From a bacterium (GTDB lineage: Bacteria; CSSED10-310; JAJRTK01): a DNA stretch of 64,000 nt. The stretch spans positions 3,612-67,611 of the forward strand of contig JAJRTK010000277.1 of NCBI GenBank assembly GCA_024278345.1. The letters run 5' to 3'. The first letter of the stretch is position 1. Each line of letters starts with the position of its first letter. Under the pieces are notes generated by a model. It was not told where the DNA came from. It saw nothing but the letters and a program-made list of their open reading frames with translations, and did not search any database. Below, piece by piece: positions 12,987-61,196 of the stretch. The position numbers were made by a program, and so were the translations under genes.

Positions 12987-14102
12987 ATGTACTCAAATAA
13001 AACAGAGCCGGACTACTACGAACTCCTGGGCTTGCGGCGAGACGCCTCGGCGCCAGAAATCAAGCGTGCTTATCGCAAAAAAGCGCTCGAATTTCACCCG
13101 GATCGCAACCCGGGAAACAAAGTCGCGGAAGAAAACTTCAAACTGGTAGCAGAGGCTCATGAAGTTCTCTCCGACCCAACAAAACGTGAAATTTACAATC
13201 GCTACGGCCGCCAGGGACTCAGAGGAAGAGGTGCCCAGCCAGGGTTTGGGGATCTGGGCGATATTTTCGGGAGTGTTTTCGAGGAGTTCTTTGGCGGCGG
13301 CGGAAATCGGCACTCTGGCCCGCGTCCGACCCGTGGACGGGACTACCGTCAAGACATGACCATCAGCTTTGAAGAAGCGGCTTTTGGCACCCAAAAGGAA
13401 ATCGACTTCAAGCGGGTCGTCCGCTGCGAACCCTGCCAGGAAACTGGCTGCCAACCCGGTAGCCCATCCGAGGTTTGCTCCACCTGTGGCGGCCGCGGAC
13501 AGGTGGCGCGGTCTCAGGGTTTCTTTACACTCACCACCACTTGTCCGCACTGCAATGGCATGGGAGAAACGTTCCGAGACCCTTGTCTCGAATGCAAGGG
13601 AAGAGGACGAAAAGTCGTCGAAAAAACGATCACTGTGTCCGTTCCCGCGGGAGTAGACAACGGCGTGCGCATCCGCGTAGCCCGTCAAGGGGAAGATGGC
13701 GAACATGGAGGTCCACCAGGAGATCTCTATGTTTTCTTGACCGTTGAGCCCCACGAGTTTTTTGTTCGGGACGGAGACGACCTACGAATCGAGATCCCCA
13801 TTTCGTTTTCGCAAGCCGCCTTGGGAGATCAGGTGGAGGTTCCCACCCTGCAAGGGATGCGAAAAATTACGATTGAGCCGGGTACTCAGACAGGAGCCGA
13901 GCTCAGGATCCGGAAGGCAGGGATGCCGAATCCCAGAGGATTCGGTGTAGGCGATCTCATGGTAAGCCTGAGAGTTTCCACGCCTACCAAGCTAGATCCT
14001 AGAGCCGAAGAGCTTTTGCGAGAGCTTGCGGAGATTGAAGGCCGCGAATTGACGGAACACAAGAGCTTTTTCGATCGGGTCCGGGATAGCCTCCACCTAT
14101 AG
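12987..14102 (+). CDS. dnaJ: Chaperone DnaJ (canonical paralog 2).
   Basis: DYYELLGL…HPDRNPG J domain. G/F region. [27 protein letters not shown] and CLECKGRGR zinc-finger motifs. C-terminal peptide-binding domains. Confidence 0.9.
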
Positions 14103-18105: not shown

Positions 18106-18155
18106 CTTAGTTCCGGTTTCGAAGCGCTGTGCCTGTCAGTCATGGTAGGGGTTTG

Positions 18156-40273: not shown

Positions 40274-42457
40274 CTACCGCTCAATGGTCAAGGAACTCGA
40301 TCCATCCGCCCTGAACCGACCGGAACTCTCGTCTGGGGACAAGCCCGGCGACTCCTCCTCCTCCAGAACCTCTGCAAGCCGGCCTAGCAATTCGTCGAAG
40401 GTGAAGGGCTTGGGCAAAAAAACCGCTCCGGTCTTCCCCAAAAAGGAGGTCAGCTCCTGGTTGAAGAGATCGCCGGAAGTCCAGACACACCTCCGCATCA
40501 AGCCCGGGGCAACCTCGAAAAACCGCTCGTAAAGCTCGACACCACTAATGTCTGGGAGCCTCCAGTCCACCAGGGCTGCGGCGAATTCCGAGCCTTGGCA
40601 GGCTTCCAAGGCGCAGGTCCCGTCAGCGACACCGGTAACCTCGAAGCCTCGGCGATGCAACAGCGACTGCAGCGCTTCAAGAATTGACTTCTCGTCATCG
40701 ACCAACAGGATCTTGCGGCCATGGCCTTTGAGTCTAGCTCCCTCGTCGGCGGCCAATTCCGATTCCCCGCCGCCTGTTTCCGCGAGCCACTGGGGCGCGG
40801 CAGGAAACCTCAAGAGCACCTGTGTTCCGCCGCCAATCTCGCTGGTGACCTCCAGGGTCCCCCCGTGTTCCTCGACGATGCCCTTGACGATGGTCATCCC
40901 AAGACCGGCCCCCGAACCGATGGCCTTCGTCGTGAAAAAGGGTTCGAAGATATGCTCCTGCACCTCGGGCCTCATGCCCGGGCCATTGTCGATGATGAGA
41001 AGCTCGCTCCGCTGTTCCTCGGTCCGGCGGGTCACGACGCTCAATACCGGCGGCTCCGTGTTGTGCGCCAGAGCAGCCACGGCATTGTCGAAAAGGTTGG
41101 AAAGAACCTGCTGGAGCTGATGCACGTTCGCCCCTGCAGGCGGCAGACCGGCTTCCAGTTCCGTTTTCAGTTGGATGCCGCTGGAAGCCAGGCGGTCCCG
41201 CCAGTCGATCAAAAAATGATCCACCAGTTGACTCAGATCGACTGCCTCCTTCTCCACCGAATGCGTTTGCGAAAACGAAAGCAGATTCTTGGCAACCCGG
41301 ACGCACCGCTCCGTTTCTTCCACCACTCGGGCCAGGTTCTGCCTTAGGAATGGGCTGTGCTGGCTCTTGTGCAAGAGCTTTACGGAACCCAGAATGTTGA
41401 GGAGGGGATCGTTGAGCTCTCTGGCTATTCCGGCGACGAACTGACCCAGGGAAGAAAGGCGCTCGCTCTTGAGGAGGCGATCCCGCGCCTGGCGGAGCTG
41501 CCGGAGATGACGCTCTAACTGTTTGTGGAGGTTGTGATTTCTGAGCATCGCGCCCAGGGCGTCCCCAATGAGGCGACAGAGCCACAGATCCCGCTCGGTG
41601 AAGGGACCCTGGGCGGCAGAGCGCCGGAGCAGCAAAGCCGTATGAACGACGTCGCCCTCAAGAATCGGCACAGCGAGAACGGATCGAATATCGACTCCCG
41701 CCAGGCGGTGGGAAACCGGTCGCATGAGTTGGTCTTGGCCGACATCGCGAACCAAAACAACCTCCTGAGTGTCCAGGAGGCGCTGGACTTCTGGATACTT
41801 CCACATCTCCAGCTGCAATCCACCGGCGGCGGCGGAATCGGTGGAAGAAAGCACGCGAAGCCGTTCGCCTGTATCGCCGGGCAGGAGCAGAGAAACGCGT
41901 TGCGCCTCGAAAAGCATGGAGATCTGATGGAGGATGTTCTGATGGATGTCCTGCCTTGGATCGCTCCTAAGCAAGGCGCCGGTAAATTCAAGCGTCTGGT
42001 GGAGAGAGGCGCGATCGTGTTCCACCTGCTCGTATAGGAGCTTGTGGCGCAGGTGGGATCGGACGCGGGCAAGGAGCTCCGGGAAAAAGATCGGCTTCGT
42101 GATGTAGTCGTCAGCACCATTCTCGAACGCCAGTAACAGGTTCTGCCGATCGGTGCGGGCGGTCAAGATGAGAACCGGCACATAGTGGGCGAACGGATGG
42201 TGCTTCAGCGTGTAGCAAACCTCAATCCCATCGATATCGGGAAGTCCCAGGTCCAGCAGGACCAAGTCTGGATGCTCACTGCCAAAAACCGAAAGTCCTT
42301 CACTCCCGGAGCGGCAGACCAAGACCTGGTAACTCTGTTCGCTCAGAAACTCGACGACGGTCTGGGCCACTCCCCGGTCGTCCTCGATCAACAGGATCTT
42401 GGGTCGGCGCACCAGGCTCATTCTTTGTTCCTCCCTAGTCCCAGGTTCTTTTGGCAC
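40274..42457 (-). CDS. Hybrid sensor histidine kinase with REC-GAF-HisKA-HATPase-REC architecture.
   Basis: N-terminal receiver (ILLIEDD…LLDLGLPDIDG). GAF-like middle region. H-box LGQFVAGIARELNDPL. N, G1 and G2 boxes (LSNLFDNA, DNGPGM, GSGAGLGMTIVKGIV). C-terminal receiver (ILLVDDEKSILE…VDWRLPDISG). Confidence 0.85.
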   Translation of the reverse strand: MPKEPGTREEQRMSLVRRPKILLIEDDRGVAQTVVEFLSEQSYQVLVCRSGSEGLSVFGSEHPDLVLLDLGLPDIDGIEVCYTLKHHPFAHYVPVLILTARTDRQNLLLAFENGADDYITKPIFFPELLARVRSHLRHKLLYEQVEHDRASLHQTLEFTGALLRSDPRQDIHQNILHQISMLFEAQRVSLLLPGDTGERLRVLSSTDSAAAGGLQLEMWKYPEVQRLLDTQEVVLVRDVGQDQLMRPVSHRLAGVDIRSVLAVPILEGDVVHTALLLRRSAAQGPFTERDLWLCRLIGDALGAMLRNHNLHKQLERHLRQLRQARDRLLKSERLSSLGQFVAGIARELNDPLLNILGSVKLLHKSQHSPFLRQNLARVVEETERCVRVAKNLLSFSQTHSVEKEAVDLSQLVDHFLIDWRDRLASSGIQLKTELEAGLPPAGANVHQLQQVLSNLFDNAVAALAHNTEPPVLSVVTRRTEEQRSELLIIDNGPGMRPEVQEHIFEPFFTTKAIGSGAGLGMTIVKGIVEEHGGTLEVTSEIGGGTQVLLRFPAAPQWLAETGGGESELAADEGARLKGHGRKILLVDDEKSILEALQSLLHRRGFEVTGVADGTCALEACQGSEFAAALVDWRLPDISGVELYERFFEVAPGLMRRCVWTSGDLFNQELTSFLGKTGAVFLPKPFTFDELLGRLAEVLEEEESPGLSPDESSGRFRADGSSSLTIER

Positions 42458-42542: not shown

Positions 42543-44681
42543 TCACGGCACCTCTGTGACCCGGGGTCTGAGAGTCTCTCCTATCTGTGCCAACAACTGA
42601 TCGAAGGTGAATGGCTTTGCCAAGAACCTCTCCTCGATCCGCTGCATGGCCAAGCGCTGGCGAGCGGCATAGGGATCTCCGGAACTGAAGATGAAGCGGC
42701 CTTCAATCTCAGGATCAACGTCCACCAACCGCTGGTAAAGCTGCTCTCCACTCATATCTGGCAATTTCATGTCGATGAACAGGACATCAAACCGTTTTTC
42801 CCGGCAAAGCTCCATCGCTTGACGCCCCGTGGCCGCTCGCCCAACCTCGAACTGGCAATGCTTGAGAAAAGTGGAAAGAGCTTCCAGGATTGAACGCTCA
42901 TCATCAACGAGCAAGACAGACTTGCTCTTCGTATCATCGGCGGCCACTCCATGACCTAGAGAAGAAGAAAAGCCAACGGCCTCTTCCGGCAGCTTCTCCA
43001 CTGACTCCCGCTCCACGGCTTGTGCCAACGGAAAGTGTATGGTCACCGTTGTGCCGCGGCCCGGGCTGCTCGAAAGGTCGATCTTGCCTCCATGGTCTTC
43101 GACGATCCCCTTGACAATGGTCAGGCCAAGCCCTGTACCGCTCCCCATGGTGCTCGTCGTAAAATAGGCCTCGAAAACTCGGCTCCGAACCTCTTCCCGC
43201 ATTCCAGGCCCATTGTCGTGAACCAATAGTTCGATCTCAGCCTCCCGCACCCGTGCGGAAATACTCAGACACGGCGGTTCGGCCGCGTGGGCCAATGCCG
43301 CGGCGGCATTGTCAAAAAGGTTCCCGAAAACCTGCTGCAACTGGTGCTTGCTTGCCATGATCGGTGGAAGCCGAGGCTCCAGGGCAATCCGAACCTGGAT
43401 TCCCGCCATGTCAAACCTGCGCGACCGATCCTGCAACGCCAACTGTAATACGTCGGCAAGGTCCACGCGGTTCTTCTCCGCCGAATAGGTCTCAGAAAAG
43501 GTAAGCAGATTCCGCACCATCCCGGAACAATGCTCGGCCTGCTGGAGAACGCGATTCAACCCCTGCCGCACATAGGGGTTCTGCTGCCCACGCATCAACA
43601 GGCGGCTGTAGCTGGCAATGCTCGTGAGAGGCGCACTGAGCTCCTTGGCGATTCCAGCCACGAACTGTCCCAGCGAAGAAAGCCGTTCGCTCTTGAGCAA
43701 TCGATCCCTGGTCTCCGTGAGCTGCTGAACCTTTCGCTCGAACTCAAGATGCAGGCTCGTATTGCGCAGCAAGGCCCCCAGCGCGTGTCCGATTAGCTGG
43801 CAAAGCCAGAGATCCCGCTCCTCGAACGGGGGCTGGTCCAGTGACCGGCGCAACAGGAGAGTCGCATGGAGCTCATCCCCCTCAAAAATAGGAATGACCA
43901 AGACCGACCGAAGATCCACCTCGGCAAGGTGCTCCGCCACAGCCGACATCAGCCGATTGCTCCGGATGTCCCGAACCATCACGACTTCTCGCGTCTCGAT
44001 GGAATGTTGGACCTCGGGATACCTCCACATTTCAAGCTGCAACCCGCCCACAGTGGCTGAATCCGTCGATGACAAGACCCTGAGAAGCTCCCCGCCGCTT
44101 TCCGGGAGCAAAAGCGAAACTCGCCGGGAATTGAAGAGCACCCGGAGCTGTTCCAAGATGCTCTGGTAAACGTCGTCCTGGGGCCCGGATCGAAGAATCG
44201 TACCGGTGAAGTTCAAGATCTGCTGGAGCGTCGTGCGATCTTGATCCATCCGCTCGCAAAGGTGCTTCACACGAAGATGCGCTCGGACCCTGGCGAGCAA
44301 CTCCTCCAAGAACACCGGCTTGATGATGTAGTCATCCGCGCCGGCCTCAAAAGCGTCGATGAGGTCGCCCCGCCGCTCACTACCGGTCAAAATCAGAACC
44401 GGAACATACTTCGCGAACGGGTGATGCTTCATGGAATAGCAAACATCCAGTCCCGGCATGTCCGGTAATCCAAGGTCCAGAAGCACAAGATCGGGGACAT
44501 TGTCCGAAAACTGCCGTAGCGCCTCCTCCCCGGTGCCACAGGCCTGAGACTCGTACCATCGCTCAGAAGCAAGGTACTCCGTCACAACCCCCACAACGTG
44601 AGGGTCGTCCTCTACAAGGAGAATCCTAGATTTGCGCATTCCGGAAGTTCCCTGGGAAGCCAAATGACCGAGCCGATCCAC
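42543..44681 (-). CDS. Hybrid sensor histidine kinase, a tandem paralog of the previous gene with the same REC-GAF-HisKA-HATPase-REC layout.
   Basis: Same motif order: ILLVEDD…, LGQFVAGIAKELSAPL, FGNLFDNA, DNGPGM, GSGTGLGLTIVKGIV, and a C-terminal VLLVDDERSILE receiver. About 50% identical to its neighbour by eye. Confidence 0.85.
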   Translation of the reverse strand: MDRLGHLASQGTSGMRKSRILLVEDDPHVVGVVTEYLASERWYESQACGTGEEALRQFSDNVPDLVLLDLGLPDMPGLDVCYSMKHHPFAKYVPVLILTGSERRGDLIDAFEAGADDYIIKPVFLEELLARVRAHLRVKHLCERMDQDRTTLQQILNFTGTILRSGPQDDVYQSILEQLRVLFNSRRVSLLLPESGGELLRVLSSTDSATVGGLQLEMWRYPEVQHSIETREVVMVRDIRSNRLMSAVAEHLAEVDLRSVLVIPIFEGDELHATLLLRRSLDQPPFEERDLWLCQLIGHALGALLRNTSLHLEFERKVQQLTETRDRLLKSERLSSLGQFVAGIAKELSAPLTSIASYSRLLMRGQQNPYVRQGLNRVLQQAEHCSGMVRNLLTFSETYSAEKNRVDLADVLQLALQDRSRRFDMAGIQVRIALEPRLPPIMASKHQLQQVFGNLFDNAAAALAHAAEPPCLSISARVREAEIELLVHDNGPGMREEVRSRVFEAYFTTSTMGSGTGLGLTIVKGIVEDHGGKIDLSSSPGRGTTVTIHFPLAQAVERESVEKLPEEAVGFSSSLGHGVAADDTKSKSVLLVDDERSILEALSTFLKHCQFEVGRAATGRQAMELCREKRFDVLFIDMKLPDMSGEQLYQRLVDVDPEIEGRFIFSSGDPYAARQRLAMQRIEERFLAKPFTFDQLLAQIGETLRPRVTEVP

Positions 44682-45868: not shown

Positions 45869-47296
45869 CTAGCCCCCTCCCGCAAGACGCTTCCCCAGAT
45901 CAAAGGCGTTCTCCACACAATTATTCATCGCCACCCCATGGTACGAGTTCCCCGACAGGTGCAGCCCTGGCCACCGGTCGGCCAGCGCCTCCACCTTCGC
46001 TACCCGATCCAGGTGGCCGAGAGTGTACTGTGGAATCGCCCGCGGGTAACGGTAAATCCGCACCAGCTCGGGGTCTCCCTCGAGCCCGAGGACCGGCCGG
46101 AGCAACTCCAAGGTCTTTGAAAGCAAGATCTCTTCCCCCTCCTCCACAATCCGACCCTGCCTCCGGCCACCCAACATTGCCCGGAGAAGAACCCGGCCCT
46201 CCGGCGCACGGCCAGGGTAGATGGAAGAGCTGAAAAGGCATCCCAAAATCGGCAAACCCTCTCGCCCCGGAACCAGGAACCCGAACCCCTCAGGCGTCCG
46301 CGTCACCTTTTTCGCCTCGAAGCCCAGGCAAACCACGGCGACGGGGGCGTAAGGAAAATCCTCCAGCCCGCGGGCCAGTTCTTCCGAAAGCCCCGACAAC
46401 ATCGGTGCTGCTCGATATGATGGCACGGTGACCACGACCTGATCCACCGGAATCCCGCCGGCCGAAGTCCGCACCTCAAGACCATTCTCCGCCTCGACAA
46501 TCGCGGCCACGGGTGTACCAAGCTCAATTTTTTCAAGTCCGATCCTCTGAACCAAAGCGTCAATGAGCTCGCCCAGCCCGCCGCGCAGGGAGGTTAAACT
46601 ACCGCTCGGGCCGGTCTGGATAGCCGGGCCATCCCTGTCGCCGCCCTCGCTCTTCCGCTTCCGCCGCTTCTCTCGCGCCAGAGCGATGGCCCCACGGATC
46701 AAGCTCCCGTGATTCGTCTCCAACCGCCGAAGCCGTGGGAAAGCCGCATCTACGGAAAGCTCGCCGGGATCGCCGCCATAGATCCCCGTCACCATGGCGT
46801 CCACAAGGGTCGTCGCCAAACCCCGGCCCAACCGCCGCGAGGCGAACTCGAGCACAGTCTCTTCCCCCTTCCCCCGCGGGATAAAAGGCTCCAATGCCAC
46901 CCGAAGACGAGACCAAAACGGCAGGATCGGACTCCGAAGAAAACTGGGAGGAGAGATCGGCACCGGTTCCAATCGCCCCGAAAGCAACAAAAACCGGTTC
47001 TTCGAAGCTGCCTCACTGGCCCCCACAAGCCGAGCGCCCACCCCCAACATCGAACAAAGCTCCAATGTCGGGGGCGAATTGTTCAAAAAACCGTTGGGAC
47101 CCCATTCGCAAAGGTAGCCATCCACTGAATCCGTCCGGATCTTGCCGCCTGGCCGGGTATCGGCTTCCAAGATGACCAGATCCGCCTCGGTTCCTCGCTT
47201 CCGGCTCTCCTCCAACAAGGCGAAAGCCGTCGTCAGTCCGCTGATCCCGGCGCCGATGATCGCGGTTTTTCCCATCTTCACACTCTCGCTTCCCAC
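45869..47296 (-). CDS. hemY: Protoporphyrinogen or coproporphyrinogen oxidase, FAD-dependent (HemY/CgoX family).
   Basis: N-terminal Rossmann motif AIIGAGISGLTTAF, a length of about 475 aa, and genomic linkage with hemE. Confidence 0.7.
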   Translation of the reverse strand: MGSESVKMGKTAIIGAGISGLTTAFALLEESRKRGTEADLVILEADTRPGGKIRTDSVDGYLCEWGPNGFLNNSPPTLELCSMLGVGARLVGASEAASKNRFLLLSGRLEPVPISPPSFLRSPILPFWSRLRVALEPFIPRGKGEETVLEFASRRLGRGLATTLVDAMVTGIYGGDPGELSVDAAFPRLRRLETNHGSLIRGAIALAREKRRKRKSEGGDRDGPAIQTGPSGSLTSLRGGLGELIDALVQRIGLEKIELGTPVAAIVEAENGLEVRTSAGGIPVDQVVVTVPSYRAAPMLSGLSEELARGLEDFPYAPVAVVCLGFEAKKVTRTPEGFGFLVPGREGLPILGCLFSSSIYPGRAPEGRVLLRAMLGGRRQGRIVEEGEEILLSKTLELLRPVLGLEGDPELVRIYRYPRAIPQYTLGHLDRVAKVEALADRWPGLHLSGNSYHGVAMNNCVENAFDLGKRLAGGG

Positions 47297-47302
47297 AAGA
47301 GG

Positions 47303-48394
47303 TCAAACAGCCCAGGGGGGCCGCCAATTCACAACCTCGTCCACCATCCAGCCCACTGCCTCTACGGGAGTTCCGGGCAGAACGCCGTGACCAAGGTTGA
47401 AGATGTGGCCACGACCGCCCCCGACATCGAGAATCGCTCGGGTTTTTGAGCGAACATGCGATTCCGGCCCAAAGAGAGTCACCGGATGAAGATTCCCCTG
47501 AACCGAAGAACCGCCCAAGCGCTGCCAGCACTCATCCACGGGAAGCTGCCAATCAATACCCACGACGTCGGCGCCGGCCTCCGAGACATCCTCCAAGAAT
47601 GCCGAGCACCCCTTGGGAAAGTAGATCACGGGAACTCGCCCGGAGATTCTCTGGACGATCTCCCGGACGAAAGGTAGGCAATAGCGGCGAAACTCCTCCC
47701 GTCCAAGGTTCCCGGCCCAAGTATCAAAAATTTGCACGGCTTGGGCACCCGCGTCCACTTGCGCCTCCAAATAAGCGGCAACCGTCTGGGTCAGCTTTTC
47801 AAGGAGTAAGAGTCCCGCGGATTCGTCATGGGCCAGGAAGCGGCCAAGCCAGGTAAACTGCTTGGCTCCGCTGCCCTCCACAAGATAGGTGGCCAAGGTA
47901 TATGGGGCGCCGGCAAACCCGATGAGAGGAACCCCCCGGCTCTCAAGTTCCCGACGCAGGAGACGCACCCCCTCCAAGACGTAGGGCACGGATTCCCGAG
48001 GATCGGGAACCCTCAATGCCTCCACTTGCTTTCGGCTGCGAATGGGATCACCGATAACCGGTCCAGGATTGAAAGTCAGATCGATCCCCATGGCCTCCAG
48101 CGGGACCATGATATCGGAAAAGAGGATCGCCGCGTCGAATCGGTACCGTTCGATGGGCTGAAGGGTCACCTCGCAGAGGAGATCGGGGCTCTTACAGAGC
48201 TCCAAGAAACTGACCTTCTCCCGCACCGCGCGATATTCAGGAAGGTATCGCCCAGCCTGGCGCATCATCCAGACGGGGGGTCTGTCCACGGACTCGCCTC
48301 GGCAAGCCTGCAAAAAACGTTGGTTCACGTTGTCTCCAATTGGGTGTTCGTTTCCCGGTGGCGGGATCAAGCCTCCACCCGGTGCCGGCGCCAA
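47303..48394 (-). CDS. hemE: Uroporphyrinogen decarboxylase.
   Basis: URO-D signature PPVWMMRQAGRYLPEYR. Length 363 aa. The first ~14 codons of the listed ORF overlap the 3' end of the giant gene and may not be translated. Confidence 0.9.
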   Translation of the reverse strand: MAPAPGGGLIPPPGNEHPIGDNVNQRFLQACRGESVDRPPVWMMRQAGRYLPEYRAVREKVSFLELCKSPDLLCEVTLQPIERYRFDAAILFSDIMVPLEAMGIDLTFNPGPVIGDPIRSRKQVEALRVPDPRESVPYVLEGVRLLRRELESRGVPLIGFAGAPYTLATYLVEGSGAKQFTWLGRFLAHDESAGLLLLEKLTQTVAAYLEAQVDAGAQAVQIFDTWAGNLGREEFRRYCLPFVREIVQRISGRVPVIYFPKGCSAFLEDVSEAGADVVGIDWQLPVDECWQRLGGSSVQGNLHPVTLFGPESHVRSKTRAILDVGGGRGHIFNLGHGVLPGTPVEAVGWMVDEVVNWRPPWAV

Positions 48395-51300
48395 ATAATC
48401 CGGCCAGCTCCAACCAGCAAGAGTAGCAAGGCCAAGAGAAGGAGAGCTTCCGACATCGCTCCCACGCTGGGGAGCAGGTCCGTCGCCTCCGTCCAGGTTC
48501 CATTGCCGCTATCAGGGTCGTCCGTGACCGCCGTGACGACAAAGCTCGTGCTCAAAGGAGTCACGGCCGTTGAAGAAACCGTTGTCTCCACCATGACGAT
48601 AGCGGTCTGCAGGGAAGCCAGCGAACCCAAATCGCAGGTCAAAGTCCCGCTATTGTCGGTGCAGCCCAGGGCGGAGACCAAGGTCAATCCTCCATCCAAA
48701 GTCACTTCCAAAGTGACTCCCGAGGCATCTGACGGCCCACCATTGGTCACCGTGGCCGTGTAATTTAGTTTTCCACCCACAGCGGCCGGATCCAGATCGT
48801 CGGCGACGCTCACCGAAAGATCGGCCGATGTCGTGACAACGATGCTCCCGGTTCCACTGTCATTCGCCGAGTTTTGGTCTCTGGTCGATGATGTCACCGT
48901 CCAAATCATGTCGGCCAAAGAGCTGGCGGAGGAATCGAGAAGGGCATCCAGATCCACCGAAATCGCACTGCCAGACGGGATGTCGCCAAGATCGCAGGTG
49001 ACCAGCCCTCCGCTTTCCGAGCAGCTCGCCGAAGTCGCCCGCACGGGCGCAACGAAGGTCAGGCCGTTGGGCAACGCCCCTGATAAGCTGCCACCACTGG
49101 CTGTCCGTGGTCCGTTGTTCGTCACCGTGACCGTATAGGTCACCGCCGAACCCGCAATGGCAGGACTGGTTGTCGAAACGGAAGTCACCTCCAGATCGGC
49201 ATACTCTTCCCCTTGCACGAAGAGCACCAGAGGATCGTGATCGGATGCACGCACGGGAGTGTTTGGATCGGCGGCGGCGCTCCCCTCATCGGGAGCGTCG
49301 GCGTTGACCCGACCGAACTCGATGCCCGTGACGGTTTGGGCCATGCTTTCGGAAGTTAAAATGTGATCCAGCACCTGCGCGGACCCGTTGGCCTGCCACG
49401 AATAGCGCTCTTCCAGAGCAAGATTCAGCACCTGATTGGTCATGTCCGGAGTGACCTCATCCGTCACGGGGATCACCGAATCATTGGGATCCGTCAGACC
49501 CCTTATCTGCCCCACGACATCGTAATAGCCGTCGGAGAACTCGAAGGCATTGAAATCCCCCAGCACAATGATGGGCATGTTCGGATCAGCAGTCTGGAGG
49601 GACTGGATATACTGGGAAAGCCTCGTCGCCTGCTCCAATCGCTTCTGCCGTGCAAACTCGCTGGAGTCCACGCCGATGAACGACCGCAAATGCACGGCGA
49701 TGGCCGTGAACGAGAAACTCGTGCCAACTCCGTCCACCTGACCTTCCAACACCAAGGGCACGCGGTCGTAGAGATCGTATGTCTGGCCATCGAGATCGAA
49801 GGTGTCGCTCAGGCCGAACTGGGAAAGGACGATGTTCGACACCTTCCCCTTGGTCAAGAAGCCCACCTGCTGAGAACCGGCGTTGGGGCTATCCATCAGA
49901 TGAGAAGTGTAGATCGTGTTGGGATCTTCGGTGGCAATCTGGGCCACCAGAGCATCGAGAGTCGCCTGATCCTGGACCTCCTCGATGGCCAAAATATCGG
50001 GTGCCTTGAGAACGTCGAGCACAAGCTTCGAAAACTTCTTCAGCCGGTCGGTCTCCGTGTTCCGAAGGAACTCCGTGTTCAACGTCGCCAGCGTGAATTC
50101 CCCGGGCAGCCGATCGCGGACGGCCCGGTAGGTAAAGGTGTTGGAAACGGAAAGGCTCTTGGGCTGAATCTGGTAGTCGCCAAAAACGAAGCCCAGCGGT
50201 CCCTCGGCCGTAAAGGTATCTCCGGCGGACATCTCCACCATGGGCAGGCCAAGAGCGTTGGGATCGAGTTCGAACAGCTCGGGGTTGCCATCCCAAACCG
50301 GGATTCCCGTGAGGCCCGGATACTCGATCCCCGCCTCTCTCAGCGCCCGGGCACGGCCGGGGGCCACCGCCATGAAGTCTCCGTACCGATTGCTGGCTCC
50401 ACTGACGATACCGTCGGTCACCTGGACAAGCATCCCCTCGAACCTCTCCAGAGGCGGCGGATCCGCTGGACTCGACGCCGGCGTCGTGCCGTCGAAAACC
50501 ACTGCCGCGGGAAGCGGATTGCCGGACGAAACCACCGTGACAACAGGAGATCGGGTGATCTCGGTGAAGCTGTAATACTCGTCCACAAGTCCTGTTACAT
50601 CCACCTCGTCGCCCACGGTCACCGATGGGGCGACCTCCGTGAAAACGAAGAGCCCTTCGGAGGTCGCCGGATCGCCATCATCCGTGCCATCGGGCGTCTG
50701 GATGTAGAATCCATCGGCGGCCACGGCTGTCACAAGGTTTCCTTTCAAAACCACGGCCCGGTCGATGTACGGTGACTTGCTGGCGGCCCCTTGGACCTCA
50801 TAAATCTTCAGCTCCGGCAGTGCCACGCAGCCGGAGAAACTCGTGCCATCGATGCGGACGCCCGGGGAGAAACGGCTCCCACCGGAACCCGTCGCCTGAG
50901 AATGCTGAACGTACGGCGGACTCCCAAGAATATCGGGATCGAGAGTGATGGAGTCGCCATTGGCCGCTTCCGCTCCATAGGTGACATCCACCACGTTGCT
51001 CGTGGGATCGTTGGGATCGCGGTAGACTTGAAGGGTGTCGCCAGCGTCATCAAGCCCCAGCCCGCCGGTGGAAGCCGTCTGGACAAGGGCGCCTCCAAAC
51101 GCATTTGGATCGGGAGTTCCACCGCCGAAAACCAGGACGGAGCACTGGTCGGGAAGAAAGCTCCCCGGAGGAAAAACATGGCGCGTGGCCGCGGCATCCT
51201 GCACGACCCACCCGTCTAGGTTGATGTCCACTCCGGAGTCGTTCACGAGTTCCAGGAACTCGTCTTGAGCGGCATCCACGGTGCCATCCCCATTGGCGTC

Positions 51301-54300
51301 GCCCGCGTTGGGATCCGGGGCCGAGTGGATTTCGTTCAGCACGGCCATGGGCGGTCGGCGGCCCGGGGTTGGGATCATGGAATCCCATGTTACCGACAGA
51401 TCCTCCGAGGTCTCGTCATTCCCCCGAAGCCCGTTTCCACCGTAGGGCACCTCGTTTCCCTCCCACGGGTCGATCCGCTGGAACGACTTCCCCGCCGAAT
51501 GCGCGGACGTGGAAATGACATCCTGGCTCGCCGTCACCGTGTCGGCCAAATAGGAGGTGGCCGCCGTATCACCGTCGGGGCCATCCACGGAGATTCCCGT
51601 CTTGTCCACGGCCTCCGCCTTGTCCCCCCAAACAGCATAGTCCAGATCCACGACAAGATCGGACTGGCCGTCCCACTGGTAGAGCACCATCACCTCGCCA
51701 CCACTCAAGCCACTGGAATCCAGGCTCCCATCCTGCTCCCACGGAAGATCGATGGAGCCGCTGAACGCCTCCAACATGTCGGGAACGTTAGGGTCCGTTC
51801 CATACAGCTCGTACGTGGGAGCCGACCCGTAAACAGCCTGAAAATCCAGCGCCCCCTGGACCGCAACCGTCTGGAAATCCCCCGACGCAATGGTCGCTCC
51901 AGAGGGGAACTTCGCATGAAAATCCCTGAAGCTCCCGCCACCAGCCAGGCAGGCGGCTACATTCCCCCCGCCGGTACAATCCGCCGTCACGATGTTGTAA
52001 TAGTAATCTCCCCCGCTGCTATAAGTCGCGTCGGTCAAATAGACGTCGGTCAAATCGATGGTGGCTGTGGTGGGGTTGTGGATCTCCACGAACTGCCCGG
52101 AATCCTGGCTCACCACCAGCTCAGAAAGCTGTAACGTTCGCTCTGGCGCGGGACAACCGGCAAATGGAACTCCGTCACTTTGGGTTCCAGGCGAAAACTG
52201 GACTCCCGGAGGGCCAGCCCCGGCGGTGGTGTGAGGCACGTATGGCATGGAACCGGTAATATCCGGATCCAGAGTGATCGACTGACCCTTCAAAGCCTCG
52301 GCGCCGAATGTCACCTGGACATCCGGATTGTTGGGATCCGCCGGGTTCGGAAGCAAAGAGATGGTGTCGCCGCCATCCACCAACCCCAGACCGCCGGAAG
52401 CCACCTGGACCGTGGTCTTCCCGAAATCCCCCACGGGAGTACCGCCGCCAAACAACACAAGTGCGCAGCCATCGGGAACAACGGTCCCCGAAGGAAAGGT
52501 GTGGACCAATCCCTGTCCCGTTGCCAGGCCCCAGCCCGAAAGATCCGCGGCGGCGCCGGTATTGTTCACCAGCTCGATAAACTCATCGGCGACTCCGTCT
52601 CTCGTGCCGTCGCCATTAGCGTCTCCCAATACGGCGTTCGGATCGATGAGATCTCCCGAATTCGGGTCGGTTATGGGATCGGAGTAGATCTCGTTCACCA
52701 CCCACTGGAATGGCGCCGGCTGGCCCGGCGTCACAGCCGCTGCTCTCCAAGTGGCCGATAGGTTCTCCGAGGTCTCGTCATGCCCCGTGACACCATTCCC
52801 TGCCACTTTGGTTTCCGTGCCCTCATTGAGATCAATCCGGTGCCACGACGAGCCGAAGGGGTGGGCTCCGGTGCTGACGATATCCTGGCTGGAAATTGCG
52901 GTATCGGCGGCATAAGCCGTCCCGGTGACGTCCAGGTCGGGACCATCAACGGAAACCCCCGTCTTGTCCACGGCTTCGACCTTATCGCCCCACACGGCGT
53001 AATCGATATCCCGCACCAGGTCCGAGACGCCATTCCAACGGTAAAGGATGACCACCTCACCGCTATTGGTCAAAGAACCCTGGTTGTTGATGGAACCCGC
53101 GGACGCCTCCCGCATATCCGGGATGGAGTCGGCGGCACCATCTTCGTAAAGCTCGTAGGTGGGGCTCACTCCCCACTGTGTCAGGAATGCGTCGGACCCC
53201 GCTAACGACACGGTTTGGTACTCCCCCGGGGCGATGGAGGACCCGGCGGGAAAACGGGCGTGAAAATCACCAAAATCGCCACCACCGGCGTTGGAACCGG
53301 TCACGATGTTGTAGTAGTAGTTCCCCCCCGTTGAGTAAGTGGCATCGGTCAAATAGAGATCATCCAGGGAAATCGTCACGGGCGTCGGGTTGTGGATTTC
53401 GATGAATTCACCTCCGGTAGGCGTCACCACGATCTCGCTCAAAAGGAGTGTCGGGCCTCCATTGGTCCCGCCCATGGTACAAGGCTGGTCCACCAAGGTC
53501 ACGCCGCCACCGGACGAGCTCCAGTCGTAACCGTCGTTGGGACCGGCTCCGTCGGGAAGCCTGGAAAAACAGCCCGTCTCCGTTCCCCCGCTCCAGCCAA
53601 GCTGATCCACCCGAACCCCCGAACCATCCATGAGATAGGCCACGTCACTGCCGGTGAAGTTCATGGTGCCGGAAAAATCTACTCCAGAAACCAACACGAG
53701 CCAGCCACCGGGTGCCACGGTGCCCCCGGCCAAAGGTGAAAGCTCATCTCCGTCGCTCAACACCCACCCTGTCAGATCGACCGCCACCGAGCCAGGGTTG
53801 TAGAGTTCCACCTGGTCCACGGCATTGGGATCGGGGAAGACATCGATCTCGTTCAGGATGGCGGATGTCCCCAGCGCCGTTCCCCCAACGTCGTTGGCAA
53901 CCCCCTGCGTGGGAGTGGCGTCAAGGTTCCAGTCCACGGCATCCACCCCGGTATCCAGGCCATCGGCGGTCCTGGCCGCACTGGATCCCACGGGAGCGAC
54001 GGGGGCTCCACCCTTCGTCCCATAGGCGACTCGGTCCACTTCCGCTCCGGTATTGTCGCACAGGACCAAGAAATCCCCCACATTGCTCAATGCAAAATTG
54101 TCTCCCGCTCCTCCCGCGGTCACAACGAAAAAACCGCCGTCGGCGATGTTCGTCCCCCCTGGAATCGTGCTGACTCCAACCCCGCAAGCCGCATCGTCAA
54201 GATACCAACCCGCCACGGAAATCACGCCGCTTCCAACGCTGTTATGAAGTTCCACCCACTCCGTGCCCTTCGGCACGAACTCGTTGATGGTGACCGCCGC

Positions 54301-54507
54301 TCCCGCCCCTGCTTCAAAGAAGATTAGCACCACCATCCAGGCAAGAACCGGGAGCCATCCTCCAACTGAAGGGAAACCGACCCGACTCGCCGCTCTTTCC
54401 ATGGGCGGCAAGGTCGAGGCCAGAGCTCCGTTCGGCAGACCAGAAAACGGGGCGTCGAACTCAGAACAGCGGCTTCCGGCGGGATTCATGGCACGTCCTC
54501 TCCTCAA
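48367..54507 (-). CDS. Giant (2046 aa) secreted, cell-anchored protein: six lamin-tail domains, an OB-like segment, an endonuclease/exonuclease/phosphatase (EEP) nuclease domain, two DUF11-type repeats, and a C-terminal TM anchor with a basic tail.
   Basis: Six LTD units with the NE(I/F)…(I/V)EL(H/Y/V)N…(D/N)L(S/T)GW signature (e.g. INEFVPKGTEWVELHN…AGWYL; ELVNNTGAAADLSGWGL). EEP C-terminal motif SDHDPL. DUF11-like TVTNNGP and TVTNGGP repeats. C-terminus LLPSVGAMSEALLLLALLLLLVGAG-RIIWRRHR. Confidence 0.8.
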   Translation of the reverse strand: MRRGRAMNPAGSRCSEFDAPFSGLPNGALASTLPPMERAASRVGFPSVGGWLPVLAWMVVLIFFEAGAGAAVTINEFVPKGTEWVELHNSVGSGVISVAGWYLDDAACGVGVSTIPGGTNIADGGFFVVTAGGAGDNFALSNVGDFLVLCDNTGAEVDRVAYGTKGGAPVAPVGSSAARTADGLDTGVDAVDWNLDATPTQGVANDVGGTALGTSAILNEIDVFPDPNAVDQVELYNPGSVAVDLTGWVLSDGDELSPLAGGTVAPGGWLVLVSGVDFSGTMNFTGSDVAYLMDGSGVRVDQLGWSGGTETGCFSRLPDGAGPNDGYDWSSSGGGVTLVDQPCTMGGTNGGPTLLLSEIVVTPTGGEFIEIHNPTPVTISLDDLYLTDATYSTGGNYYYNIVTGSNAGGGDFGDFHARFPAGSSIAPGEYQTVSLAGSDAFLTQWGVSPTYELYEDGAADSIPDMREASAGSINNQGSLTNSGEVVILYRWNGVSDLVRDIDYAVWGDKVEAVDKTGVSVDGPDLDVTGTAYAADTAISSQDIVSTGAHPFGSSWHRIDLNEGTETKVAGNGVTGHDETSENLSATWRAAAVTPGQPAPFQWVVNEIYSDPITDPNSGDLIDPNAVLGDANGDGTRDGVADEFIELVNNTGAAADLSGWGLATGQGLVHTFPSGTVVPDGCALVLFGGGTPVGDFGKTTVQVASGGLGLVDGGDTISLLPNPADPNNPDVQVTFGAEALKGQSITLDPDITGSMPYVPHTTAGAGPPGVQFSPGTQSDGVPFAGCPAPERTLQLSELVVSQDSGQFVEIHNPTTATIDLTDVYLTDATYSSGGDYYYNIVTADCTGGGNVAACLAGGGSFRDFHAKFPSGATIASGDFQTVAVQGALDFQAVYGSAPTYELYGTDPNVPDMLEAFSGSIDLPWEQDGSLDSSGLSGGEVMVLYQWDGQSDLVVDLDYAVWGDKAEAVDKTGISVDGPDGDTAATSYLADTVTASQDVISTSAHSAGKSFQRIDPWEGNEVPYGGNGLRGNDETSEDLSVTWDSMIPTPGRRPPMAVLNEIHSAPDPNAGDANGDGTVDAAQDEFLELVNDSGVDINLDGWVVQDAAATRHVFPPGSFLPDQCSVLVFGGGTPDPNAFGGALVQTASTGGLGLDDAGDTLQVYRDPNDPTSNVVDVTYGAEAANGDSITLDPDILGSPPYVQHSQATGSGGSRFSPGVRIDGTSFSGCVALPELKIYEVQGAASKSPYIDRAVVLKGNLVTAVAADGFYIQTPDGTDDGDPATSEGLFVFTEVAPSVTVGDEVDVTGLVDEYYSFTEITRSPVVTVVSSGNPLPAAVVFDGTTPASSPADPPPLERFEGMLVQVTDGIVSGASNRYGDFMAVAPGRARALREAGIEYPGLTGIPVWDGNPELFELDPNALGLPMVEMSAGDTFTAEGPLGFVFGDYQIQPKSLSVSNTFTYRAVRDRLPGEFTLATLNTEFLRNTETDRLKKFSKLVLDVLKAPDILAIEEVQDQATLDALVAQIATEDPNTIYTSHLMDSPNAGSQQVGFLTKGKVSNIVLSQFGLSDTFDLDGQTYDLYDRVPLVLEGQVDGVGTSFSFTAIAVHLRSFIGVDSSEFARQKRLEQATRLSQYIQSLQTADPNMPIIVLGDFNAFEFSDGYYDVVGQIRGLTDPNDSVIPVTDEVTPDMTNQVLNLALEERYSWQANGSAQVLDHILTSESMAQTVTGIEFGRVNADAPDEGSAAADPNTPVRASDHDPLVLFVQGEEYADLEVTSVSTTSPAIAGSAVTYTVTVTNNGPRTASGGSLSGALPNGLTFVAPVRATSASCSESGGLVTCDLGDIPSGSAISVDLDALLDSSASSLADMIWTVTSSTRDQNSANDSGTGSIVVTTSADLSVSVADDLDPAAVGGKLNYTATVTNGGPSDASGVTLEVTLDGGLTLVSALGCTDNSGTLTCDLGSLASLQTAIVMVETTVSSTAVTPLSTSFVVTAVTDDPDSGNGTWTEATDLLPSVGAMSEALLLLALLLLLVGAGRIIWRRHRVEA

Positions 54508-54859: not shown

Positions 54860-57313
54860 GTGGAACAGGCGGGCGGAACGAAGATGAACAACACCAAACC
54901 CGGGCAAGATCCAGGGAATGGCAACGAAGAGAGAATCGTTGATCCAGGCCGTGCTCTGCTTCGGGCGGCGGTGCGTGCTGTAGCCCTGGGCCTGATACCG
55001 GGCGGTCTTTTTGTGGGCTCGCTTTTCGAGGAAGTTGTCTCGCCCTGGTGCGAGGCCGGCTGGAAGTGGTTGAATAACCGCAAAAAGAAGGAACAGCAAC
55101 AGGCCATTGACGGGCTTGCGCGGATCCCTGTGGAGGATGCGCGGCGGATCGCGGAAGAGGAGCTCGGCGGATCGAAGCTGACGCCCGAGGAACGGGAAAA
55201 AGTCGCCGACTATCTGGCGGTCATCCCCATGACGGCGCGGCGTGCCATCCAGCATACCCAAGATGGAGGAAAACCGGCGACCCTCCTGTCTCAGCTCCCG
55301 GCACACCAAGACTCGCTGATGAAGTTCCTGCCTCTCCGGCCTCCTCGGTTCAAGGCCGGGCACAAGGTTCCTTCCTACGATTTCGAACTGGAGCTGCTCC
55401 TGGGCCAGGGTGGTTTCGGCGAAGTCTGGAAGGCGCGGCACATTCGCCGGCAGTCGGTGCCGCCCAGAGCCTTCAAATTTTGCCTGGACGAGTCGGTGAG
55501 GGTAAGCCTTGAGCGGGAGCTCGATCTTCTGGACCATATCGAGGCTAAGGGCCGACACCCGGGGATCGTCCAGCTCCTTGGAACAGCGATGACGGCGGCC
55601 CCCCCCTTCTTGATGTACGAGTACATCGACGGCGGAGACCTGGTGGCCTGGCTGGCGAGCTTCGACGGACGCCCTCCGCCGGCACGGGACGTGATGCGCA
55701 TCCTTTGGATGACGACCGAAGCTCTTGGCTTCGCCCATGAGCTCAATATTGTTCACCGCGATCTCAAGCCCGCGAACCTGCTCATCACCCGAAAAGGGCG
55801 CATCAAGATCGCCGACTTCGGCATCGGAGCCTTGAACGCTCACGCCGCCGCGGTTGGCGAAGCAAGCCCGGCGGCATCACAGATGTCCCTGCTCCAAGGG
55901 GCCTGCACGCCCATGTACGCTGATCTTGCGCAACAACGGGGAGAAAGGGTCGATGCCCGCGCCGACGTCTATGCCCTTGGGGTGATCGTCTATCAGCTCC
56001 TCCTAGGCGACGTCACTCAGGCACTCTCCCCCTACTGGAGGGAAGAGCTCGAGGATCGGCAGATTCCCGGTTCCGTCGTGGATCTCGTGGCATCGTGCAT
56101 CTGCTCTCCAAAGCGCCGGATTCCCGATGCCAATGCCCTCCTTGCGGAAATGCAAAGGCTCAGAAAAGCCTCTCGAAAGGGCCGGACATCCGCGCCAACC
56201 TCTCCCGGCCCGGCACAAAAAAATCGCCAACCGGCACAAACGGCGACTCTGGCACCACCAATGCCTGGCCCACAGCCTCCGGTATCGTCCATGGTGCCAC
56301 CGCTTGGGCCGCCAGTAGAGGCGACATCGCCTCCTAAAAGCGCCCGCTTCTCCAATTCCGGGCCCTCCACCCGGGAGCTGCTTCTGGCAACCTTCGAGAC
56401 GGATTCCGACGGCAAGACTGGGCAGCCCTCATCAACCGCTCTTCCACCCTCCTTCCAACAAATGATCCACCGGACGATCCACCGGTTCGATAGCGTGACG
56501 CCCACCTCCATGTCCATGGTCGTCGATGAAGAATCTGAAACCTCTTCGGGTCCCAGCATCGGTGATACTCGCTGGATTCCACTCTCTGAAACAGCCAGGC
56601 TGGGATTCGTCTGGGTTCCAGGTGGCACCTTCCAGATGGGGGCAACCGGTGACGACCGCCATGCCGAGCCGGACGAGAAACCGCCACACATGGTGCGCCT
56701 CACCGGATTTTGGCTGAGCCGAACTCCGGTGACGCAAGAAGAGTGGGACGCGGTCATGCGGGGCGCCACGGTGACGCAGGGCTGGGTCTTTCGCAAGACT
56801 TCCTCCCTGGAGTCGCCCAGCGCCTTCCGCGGCCCGGCCCGACCGGTGGAAAACGTGTCCTGGAACGATCTCCAGGTTTTTCTGAAACGAGCTCCTCTCA
56901 GCCTCCGCCTCCCCACGGAAGCCGAATGGGAATACGCGGCTCGGGGCGGATTGACGGCAATCCGCTACGACGCAGTGGACGAGGTGGCATGGTACGCCGG
57001 CAACAGCAAACGGCAGACCCAACCCGTGGGCCTCTTAAAACCCAACCAATACGGACTTTACGACATGCTGGGCAACGTATGGGAGTGGTGCCTGGACGTG
57101 TACCACGTGGATGCCTACAAGAGCCGTCGCGGGATCACCGACAACCCCCGCGTCAACAGCCCCTCCACCGGAGATCGAGTCCTCCGCGGAGGCGCCTGGT
57201 ACACACCGGCCCCCATCATCCGAGCCTCGAACCGCTTCGCCGACTCTCCGGATCGAAGAAGCCCCAACACCGGATTCCGCGTCGTCCTCCGCGACCGGTG
57301 GGACACGGTTTAA
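54860..57313 (+). CDS. Ser/Thr protein kinase fused to a C-terminal formylglycine-generating-enzyme (FGE/SUMF1-like) domain.
   Basis: Kinase motifs GQGGFGEVWKA, HRDLKPANLLI, DFG and a PE-containing activation segment. C-terminal FGE-type motifs: GFWLSRTPVTQEEW, NVWEWC, RGGAWYT…RFADSPDRRSPNTGFRVV. A Pro-rich linker (SAPTSPGPAQKNRQPAQTATLAPPMPGPQPP) lies between them. Confidence 0.75.
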   Translation: MEQAGGTKMNNTKPGQDPGNGNEERIVDPGRALLRAAVRAVALGLIPGGLFVGSLFEEVVSPWCEAGWKWLNNRKKKEQQQAIDGLARIPVEDARRIAEEELGGSKLTPEEREKVADYLAVIPMTARRAIQHTQDGGKPATLLSQLPAHQDSLMKFLPLRPPRFKAGHKVPSYDFELELLLGQGGFGEVWKARHIRRQSVPPRAFKFCLDESVRVSLERELDLLDHIEAKGRHPGIVQLLGTAMTAAPPFLMYEYIDGGDLVAWLASFDGRPPPARDVMRILWMTTEALGFAHELNIVHRDLKPANLLITRKGRIKIADFGIGALNAHAAAVGEASPAASQMSLLQGACTPMYADLAQQRGERVDARADVYALGVIVYQLLLGDVTQALSPYWREELEDRQIPGSVVDLVASCICSPKRRIPDANALLAEMQRLRKASRKGRTSAPTSPGPAQKNRQPAQTATLAPPMPGPQPPVSSMVPPLGPPVEATSPPKSARFSNSGPSTRELLLATFETDSDGKTGQPSSTALPPSFQQMIHRTIHRFDSVTPTSMSMVVDEESETSSGPSIGDTRWIPLSETARLGFVWVPGGTFQMGATGDDRHAEPDEKPPHMVRLTGFWLSRTPVTQEEWDAVMRGATVTQGWVFRKTSSLESPSAFRGPARPVENVSWNDLQVFLKRAPLSLRLPTEAEWEYAARGGLTAIRYDAVDEVAWYAGNSKRQTQPVGLLKPNQYGLYDMLGNVWEWCLDVYHVDAYKSRRGITDNPRVNSPSTGDRVLRGGAWYTPAPIIRASNRFADSPDRRSPNTGFRVVLRDRWDTV

Positions 57314-61068: not shown

Positions 61069-61196
61069 ATCGATCCCCGAGATGAGGCACCGCCCCAAAC
61101 CCAGGGCGCCGCAGTGAAACAAGGGGGAAACTATACCAGATGAGGACCCTTGCTTCGAGCCGCCGGAGCGCCGGCTGGCCAATCGTCCGGCACCGG

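Follow-up and report, generated by a model that had tools for sequence, protein, structure and literature searches.

The question raised by contig JAJRTK010000277.1 of assembly GCA_024278345.1 (positions 3,612 to 67,611 of the forward strand, a stretch of 64,000 nucleotides that is called the window below) is what a long minus-strand gene with several repeated domains encodes, how its internal repeat arose, and what its product does. A first-pass annotation of this DNA had described a 2046-amino-acid (aa) surface nuclease with a recent tandem duplication. Our analysis shows that the gene is real and intact and belongs to a family of predicted extracellular nucleases with multiple lamin-tail domains (LTDs). 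The product is quite probably a secreted DNA nuclease tethered to the cell envelope, with the breakdown of extracellular DNA (eDNA) for nutrients or for matrix remodelling as its likely role. By architecture the protein is a variant form of a known enzyme type, a greatly enlarged relative of the nucleases ExeM, Xds, and SpnA. Its family is large, already annotated, and widespread in soils and sediments, and this single locus overturns no current understanding.

Mechanically, the open reading frame (ORF) occupies 48367..54507 of the minus strand, with 2046 codons counted from TTG 54507 and no internal stops. ATG 54489 was taken as the start because a Shine-Dalgarno-like element lies 6 nt ahead of it and because the protein predicted by NCBI (P0001, 2040 aa) is identical to the product from this codon. 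This ATG is likely to be the true start rather than TTG 54507. The uninterrupted frame of the first-pass annotation thus stands, and its start moves inward to give a protein of 2040 aa. Residue numbers throughout follow the 2046-aa numbering that begins at TTG 54507.

48367..54489, minus strand: nuclease gene, 2040 codons from ATG 54489, with the stop TGA at 48369-48367
54496..54505, minus strand: Shine-Dalgarno-like GAGGAGAGGA, 6 nt upstream of ATG 54489, by direct sequence reading

Catalytic core of the probable nuclease

The evidence for a nuclease comes from two adjoining regions, a pair of OB-like domains and a domain of the endonuclease/exonuclease/phosphatase (EEP) type, which were located by profile hidden Markov models (HMMs), by alignment to a solved structure and by an AlphaFold2 (AF2) model.

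50098..50811, minus strand: two OB-like beta domains preceding the nuclease (aa 1233-1470), from the NCBIfam ExeM/NucH match at aa 1259-1367, the SpnA alignment and the beta-barrel segments of the AF2 model
49213..50097, minus strand: EEP (DNase I-like) catalytic domain (aa 1471-1765), PF03372, 44.7-49.9 bits (cutoff 24.5)

The residues N1477, E1510, H1606, D1651, N1653, D1714, D1756, and H1757 are all present, each at least 97% conserved in 117 homologs, and we take these eight to be the canonical DNase I/ExoIII-type motifs of the EEP superfamily. The AF2 model of aa 1233-1765 (pLDDT 86.2, pTM 0.84) consists of two beta domains followed by an EEP fold. In a Foldseek search, the EEP part of this model matched TDP2, DNase I, ExoIII, CNOT6L, and Bacteroides EEP proteins with E values of about 1e-11 to 1e-9. 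When solved structures were searched by sequence, the sole match was 9SF8/9SF9 (E value of 2.6e-13), with aa 1233-1762 of the protein aligned to its residues 2-307. These entries represent Streptococcus pyogenes SpnA, resolved as OB3-OB4-nuclease (PMC13601614). The OB-like pair at aa 1233-1470 corresponds to OB3 and OB4 of SpnA (PMC13601614) and to the YhcR-like region of ExeM, and the SpnA metal ligands E592 and D842 (PMC13601614) align with E1510 and D1756. The call of a nuclease in the first-pass annotation is therefore supported by the SpnA match, the conserved catalytic motifs, the EEP-fold model, and the ExeM/NucH HMM match, which lies below the cutoff of that model.

We read the enzyme as a DNase because its core is common to ExeM, Xds, and SpnA and because of the published biochemistry of those enzymes. 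ExeM requires Ca2+ plus Mg2+ or Mn2+, and it cannot do without its OB and EEP regions, while its LTD is not needed in vivo (PMC6085458). Xds, an exonuclease, requires its OB but not its LTD (PMC6746945). In SpnA, Mg2+ serves catalysis and Ca2+ stability (PMC13601614).

The protein was further compared with these enzymes as a whole. Like ExeM of Shewanella oneidensis and Xds of Vibrio cholerae, it comprises, in this order, a signal, LTD, an OB-like region, EEP, a linker, and a C-terminal hydrophobic anchor with basic residues; the catalytic Asp and His stand in the same motifs, and the match to the ExeM/NucH HMM falls on the OB region. The need of both enzymes for Ca2+ and Mg2+ (PMC6085458, PMC6746945) fits the conserved acidic loops of this protein. 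In contrast to ExeM and Xds, it carries six LTDs, of three types, where those enzymes have a single one, and its length is 2040 aa against about 870 aa. The GlyGly-CTERM motif of ExeM is absent, and two DUF11 domains stand where ExeM and Xds have an unstructured linker. With SpnA it shares the OB-OB-EEP core and a C-terminal tether to the surface, which is predicted here. However, SpnA lacks LTDs, possesses additional OB domains at its N-terminus, and bears a genuine LPXTG signal, and the identity between the two proteins is low, with patchy aligned stretches.

Two Thermoanaerobaculaceae proteins of 707-709 aa, L045 (2138-4267) and L050 (357-2480), have the order signal peptide-OB-EEP-DUF11 and show 40-44% identity to aa 1232-2006. 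Unlike our protein, they have no LTD arm, a single DUF11 domain, and no C-terminal membrane helix. Such minimal forms show that OB-EEP-DUF11 can exist by itself as a core and that the LTD arm is an addition to it.

Domain inventory and the A-B modules

Domain positions were obtained from Pfam scans of ten separate protein segments, and the gathering cutoff of PF00932 (LTD) is 34.3 bits. In the scan of the whole protein, LTD scored 223.4 bits over six stretches, Exo_endo_phos 44.7 bits (aa 1474-1757), and DUF11 113.6 bits over two stretches, which agrees with the six LTDs, one EEP domain, and two DUF11 repeats listed in the first-pass annotation. The strings that had been quoted for these domains and for the repeat (SDHDPLVLFV, TVTNNGP/TVTNGGP, and two long paralogous strings) were all found in the translation. 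LTD1, LTD2, LTD4, and LTD6 clear the PF00932 cutoff when scanned singly; LTD3 and LTD5 do not, and these two are divergent LTDs bearing inserts. The B_ant_repeat model TIGR01451 also matched above its cutoff (54.9 bits against 24).

54019..54306, minus strand: LTD1, canonical lamin-tail domain (aa 68-163), PF00932, 54.5 bits alone
53590..53859, minus strand: LTD2, canonical lamin-tail domain (aa 217-306), PF00932, 49.2 bits alone
aa 352-493, minus strand: LTD3 Pfam match, 32.8 bits alone, under the cutoff of 34.3
aa 632-719, minus strand: LTD4 Pfam match, 44.9 bits alone
aa 788-884+, minus strand: LTD5 Pfam match, 28.7 bits alone, under the cutoff of 34.3
aa 1057-1164, minus strand: LTD6 Pfam match, 44.3 bits alone
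52708..53451, minus strand: module A1, enlarged A-type LTD containing LTD3 (aa 353-600), Pfam LTD 32.8 bits, with an AF2 model and lamin immunoglobulin (Ig)-fold matches
52138..52707, minus strand: module B1, B-type LTD containing LTD4 (aa 601-790), Pfam LTD 44.9 bits, with an inserted acidic loop GDANGDGxxDxxxDEF
51346..52137, minus strand: module A2, second and more diverged A-type LTD containing LTD5 (aa 791-1054), Pfam LTD 28.7 bits, with a Cys-containing insertion
50812..51345, minus strand: module B2, second B-type LTD containing LTD6 (aa 1055-1232), Pfam LTD 44.3 bits, with a GDANGDGTVD loop
48847..49197, minus strand: DUF11 repeat 1, Ig-like stalk domain (aa 1771-1887), PF01345, 72.8 bits
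48496..48822, minus strand: DUF11 repeat 2 (aa 1896-2004), PF01345, 60.8 bits

The A module is an LTD of ~245 aa and the B module an LTD of ~180 aa. A1 contains a Gly- and aromatic-rich loop, YYYNIVTGxNAGGGxFxDFHARFP, which is invariant in the family, together with a long C-terminal extension. This extension closes with the usual LTD motifs, GSSWHRID...HDETSENLSATW...TPG. The repeated unit had been described as an LTD-LTD-linker block; the pairing of LTDs holds, and the supposed linker is the C-terminal extension of the A module. In the B module, the loop GDANGDGxxDxxxDEF sits between the first two strands of the LTD and is nearly invariant in 48 sequences. Judged by its DxNxDG pattern and its resemblance to DxDxDG-type loops only, it is a probable Ca2+ site. 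The AF2 model of A1-B1 (pLDDT 79.8, pTM 0.71) matched the Ig domains of lamin A/C and lamin B1 in Foldseek with probability 1.0, and the top match was the Bacteroides DUF4876 structure 4q1z. Near-invariant family columns are retained at 87 of 88 positions in A1 and at 79 of 88 in A2, which indicates that both A copies are under selection.

Extent and age of the internal duplication

Self-BLASTP with the full protein returned the identity match alone, and the repeat emerged with sliding windows. In these, aa 353-797 match aa 791-1238 over ~445 aa, with ~48-57% identity per 150-aa window. The internal duplication noticed earlier is thus present, at ~445 aa rather than the ~500 aa then given. A global alignment of the two copies contained 427 aligned pairs with 58.3% amino-acid identity. 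When codons were threaded on this alignment, the nucleotide identity was 58.4%, and only 35.4% of third codon positions were identical; because third positions agree at this level, synonymous sites are saturated. The longest nucleotide word common to both copies is 21 nt, and BLASTN between the copies found three short patches only (72-83% identity).

These values contradict the recent tandem duplication proposed in the first-pass annotation, in favour of which there is only the protein-level similarity of the copies noted there. An assembly artefact, the concern raised with it, is excluded by the nucleotide divergence, since an assembler can neither create nor collapse a repeat so diverged. 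The reading frame is also intact, and 79-87 of the 88 family-invariant residues are present in both copies. Taken with the saturated third positions, the 21-nt limit on common words, and the short BLASTN patches, this leaves virtually no chance that the repeat is an artefact or a very recent event.

A1 shows a median identity of 71% to the same module in other phyla (124 homologous modules) and 64.5% identity to A2. The median identity of A2 to its homologs is 55%, and A2 is thus the diverged copy. Neighbour-joining trees of the modules pair B1 with B2 as sisters, both on long branches; A2 lies on a long branch and is not placed as the sister of A1. The best reading is that the A-B pair would have been duplicated within this lineage, long ago, because B1 and B2 are sisters and the arrangement is collinear; for the A module this is not proven.

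Protein termini and predicted location

By Kyte-Doolittle hydropathy the protein has two hydrophobic segments and no more, one at each terminus (aa 43-75 and aa 2010-2041). This makes an envelope or surface location, as claimed in the first-pass annotation, plausible.

54283..54381, minus strand: N-terminal hydrophobic segment VGFPSVGGWLPVLAWMVVLIFFEAGAGAAV (aa 43-75), Kyte-Doolittle scan
48370..48480, minus strand: three-part C-terminal tail (aa 2010-2046), consisting of DLLPSVGA, the hydrophobic helix SEALLLLALLLLLVGAG, and basic RIIWRRHR, hydropathy scan

The N-terminal segment may be either a Sec signal peptide, with a predicted cleavage at an AGA-A cleavage-like site, or a signal anchor. 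At the other end, the LPXTG model TIGR01167 scored 13.4 bits (E value of 0.096), below its cutoff of 15.9 bits, and the motif is LPSVG rather than LPXTG. The remaining NCBIfam sorting-domain models gave no match to the tail at E<=1. The tail reads DLLPSVGAMSEALLLL..., without a GG pair ahead of the helix, and therefore carries no GlyGly-CTERM signal.

A separate plus-strand ORF in the window, at 18129-20225, encodes a 698-aa BNR/Ycf48-like protein, which looks secreted and partially matches the F510_1955 glycosylhydrolase family. Its C-terminus, VPGLGAAGVVVLLLLFGLLLNPVCWRK (VPGLGAAG-helix-WRK), resembles the nuclease tail LPSVGAMSEALLLLALLLLLVGAGRIIWRRHR. The likeness and the three-part shape, which is that of a sorting signal, suggest a common, undescribed C-terminal sorting tag, perhaps genome-specific, of the form [LV]P[SG][VL]GA-helix-WR[RK].

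Architecture and distribution of the family

The modules of the protein were mapped onto 60 homologs. The general layout is an N-terminal domain, at least one A module, at least one B module, an OB-like region, EEP, and a variable C-terminus, and the arrangements found were A-B, A-B-B (the commonest), A-A-B, A-B-B-B, and B-A-B-A-B-B-B. Among the 59 homologs with a listed architecture, there was no second case of LTD-LTD-A-B-A-B-OB-EEP-DUF11-DUF11 followed by a transmembrane segment. Sister modules within single proteins were found in P0010, P0011, P0021, P0033, and P0002, indicating repeated independent duplications.

At least 563 related stretches were found among GTDB species representatives, and the best 80 of these showed at most 55% identity. 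The nearest retrieved protein homologs are 51% identical, with half of the length covered. Family members (P0002-P0120) come from metagenome-assembled genomes of Thermoanaerobaculia and other Acidobacteriota, Woeseiaceae and other Gammaproteobacteria, Planctomycetota, and Calditrichota. They have the A-type LTD, the B-type LTD, OB, and EEP in common with our protein at 41-71% median identity (A1, 71%; B, 50%; OB region, 48%; EEP, 41%). Unlike our protein, the usual family member is built as A-B, A-B-B, or A-A-B and ends in a Cys-rich or IPTL-CTERM-like C-terminus. Annotations of the homologs read "predicted extracellular nuclease" or "lamin tail domain-containing protein"; the proteins carry ordinary signal peptides and differ in their C-terminal sorting tails. 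Their C-termini include IPTL-CTERM-like tails, the Cys-rich motif DTAGCSCEQII...GLGKGH.KFGCS, DGFESGD..W ends, and SLH domains. The A module, which is the best conserved part of the family, was matched in at least 478 clusters of proteins (50% identity level) at E<=1e-30. In 54 sampled other A-module proteins it was always accompanied by further LTDs, and some of these proteins also carried EEP, OB-fold, Endonuclease_1, or CBM_56 domains or type IX secretion system (T9SS) tails.

Most family members (P0007, P0008, P0011, and P0020-P0061) end in ~45 aa with a four-Cys motif, DTAGCSCEQII..GLGKGH.KFGCS..M..W. The precomputed Pfam table for these proteins lists LTD/EEP, some TSP_3 or Calx-beta, and no other accession. 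The four-Cys motif may be an unrecognised secretion or anchoring domain.

Proposed function and alternative explanations

In the mechanism that we propose, the N-terminal hydrophobic segment would direct export through the Sec pathway. The C-terminal helix and basic tail would retain the protein in the membrane or serve as a sorting signal for some processing enzyme. The two DUF11 Ig-like domains would form a stalk linking the anchor to the enzyme. The working part, as sequence and model show, is the OB-like pair with the DNase I-type EEP domain, a core as in ExeM, Xds, and SpnA. By analogy, the OB domains would grip the nucleic acid and the EEP domain would cut phosphodiester bonds with Mg2+, with Ca2+ contributing to stability or activity. 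Ahead of the core, lamin-tail Ig-like domains of three kinds, six in all (two canonical, two A-type, and two B-type), form a predicted arm. Multivalent and stiffened by Ca2+, this arm might reach out for and capture extracellular DNA or some other polymer of the envelope or matrix. Its part would be accessory, given that neither ExeM nor Xds needs its LTD for catalysis. The role in eDNA, biofilm, or nutrient metabolism is likely by analogy to ExeM and Xds (PMC6085458, PMC6746945).

The A module suggests a specific binding function because of its 71% conservation, its invariant Gly/His/Arg loop, its presence in at least 478 clusters, and its co-occurring domains. Tentatively, and with more doubt than confidence, we propose that it is an undescribed functional unit that binds the phosphate/DNA backbone or another polymer and aids substrate capture or processivity, with the copy number setting the avidity. 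If this were true, the two A-B pairs would make the protein a multivalent machine for harvesting eDNA, and the A module would merit a family definition of its own.

Several observations weigh against a secreted, envelope-tethered DNase. The NCBIfam ExeM/NucH model NF033681 scored 124.6 bits against a cutoff of 300 bits, with its best stretch at aa 1259-1367, and the ExeM-GG model NF033680 scored 54.8 bits against 1300 bits; by sequence, the protein is related to the ExeM/NucH family, yet it is outside NCBI's definition of NF033681. It is strongly acidic (D+E, 13%; K+R, 3.8%), which is unusual in a DNA-binding protein unless the contact is bridged by cations. The region ahead of the N-terminal hydrophobic core is unusually long (~44 aa from M7), and the invariant loop of the A module was modelled by AF2 at low confidence. 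If the host has two membranes, a C-terminal anchor in the inner membrane would keep the enzyme periplasmic unless it is processed. The DnaK encoded on the contig is just 75-76% identical to that of named taxa, and hence neither an envelope type nor a sorting enzyme can be assigned. Clustering of the flanking ORFs at the best 80 of the at least 563 loci revealed no conserved partner (nucleotidase, phosphatase, or transporter) for a scavenging pathway, and none of the multi-LTD family members has been studied experimentally.

Other functions were weighed against the same evidence. The EEP superfamily is broad, Foldseek also returned Nocturnin (an NADPH phosphatase) and neutral sphingomyelinase with E values of about 1e-10, and CBM_56 was present in 4 of the 54 sampled other A-module proteins. 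A phosphatase, sphingomyelinase, or other phosphodiesterase with a non-DNA substrate, working as a surface hydrolase for lipids or polysaccharide phosphates, is nevertheless unlikely: the upstream OB-like pair is kept across the family and aligns with OB3 and OB4 of SpnA, the best family-level HMM match is the ExeM/NucH nuclease model, and the A module elsewhere co-occurs with EEP, OB-fold, and Endonuclease_1 domains. The protein might also be mainly a structural adhesin or matrix protein, whose ten Ig-like domains (six LTD, two OB-like, and two DUF11) bind eDNA or a polymer while the nuclease is secondary or lost. Non-catalytic beta-sandwich domains account for about 70% of its length, the A module is conserved above the catalytic domain (median identity of 71% versus 41%), and A modules also occur in proteins without a detected catalytic domain, some of which are perhaps gene fragments. 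However, the catalytic residues are all intact here and at least 97% conserved in the family, which would be unexpected for a degenerate enzyme, and we give the adhesin explanation little credence.

An enzyme on the inner membrane or in the periplasm, which processes incoming DNA for uptake (competence) or excludes foreign DNA instead of scavenging outside, seems very doubtful. Its C-terminal helix and basic tail would anchor in the cytoplasmic membrane, ExeM is membrane-associated (PMC6085458), and the host is probably two-membraned, judged by its nearest DnaK relatives. On the other hand, no competence or defence genes lie nearby, PADLOC gave no match for the nuclease, and homologs bear outer-surface or secretion tags (T9SS tails, SLH domains, and IPTL-CTERM-like tails). 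A defence-system function was likewise rejected, as PADLOC gave nothing for the nuclease and the matches of the neighbouring kinase were generic kinase-domain matches.

A secreted, envelope-tethered DNase remains our preferred reading. Extracellular DNA is a major pool of P, N, and C in soils and sediments (PMC8289736), and genes for multi-LTD enzymes are present in hundreds of uncultured species, among them Acidobacteriota, Woeseiaceae, and Planctomycetota. The module grammar, namely A-type LTD, B-type LTD with a putative Ca2+ loop, OB-OB-EEP, and interchangeable C-terminal sorting tails, could help in annotating such proteins and in designing constructs. The unusually strong conservation seen in the A module marks where an unrecognised function may sit.

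Genomic context and other genes in the window

The minus-strand order around the gene is hemA, a hemC-hemD fusion, an OmpR-type two-component system, a divergent kinase gene, the nuclease, hemE, and hemY. The haem-biosynthesis genes thus form two groups ~11 kb apart, with the two-component system, the kinase, and the nuclease between them.

61197-62750, minus strand: hemA
59362-61182, minus strand: hemC-hemD fusion
47303-48328, minus strand: hemE, 38 nt downstream of the nuclease stop, with its own GGAGA Shine-Dalgarno and GTG start
45869-47296, minus strand: hemY/protoporphyrinogen oxidase

Co-transcription of hemE with the nuclease is possible, because the 38-nt gap lacks a clear terminator. 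A sigma-70 promoter scan gave no site, and terminator-like matches were at background level. Repeats in the intergenic region upstream of the nuclease were just short and unremarkable, and Rfam and tRNA scans of the window returned nothing. At the best 80 of the at least 563 loci, none of hemE, hemY, hemCD, hemA, and the two-component system recurs beside the homologs; the best flanking cluster, beginning MLSGLIARQGMV...TIDTLRADRLGCYGY, was found in only 8 of these 80.

The divergent gene at 54860-57313 (plus strand) is separated from the nuclease by a 370-bp intergenic region. It encodes an 817-aa Ser/Thr kinase with a C-terminal FGE-sulfatase-type domain (GldK/PvdO/EgtB-like), and its PADLOC matches, mad6 and PD-T4-6, look generic. 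Two tandem paralogous hybrid sensor kinases of 727 and 712 aa lie at 40274-42457 and 42543-44681 (minus strand), with an identical layout of receiver, GAF, HisKA, and HATPase domains and two receiver stretches matched. A further protein with a Ser/Thr kinase domain, of 1358 aa at 32214-36290 (plus strand), has a C-terminal region that is long and TPR/AfsR-like, and it partially matches the TOMM kinase/cyclase family. The dnaK gene at 9251-11164 (plus strand) is followed by genes for two separate J-domain proteins, at 11317-12423 and 12987-14102. The nearest relatives of this DnaK, at 75-76% identity, belong to KSB3/Moduliflexota, Acidobacteriota, and Schekmanbacteria, indicating a poorly sampled lineage.

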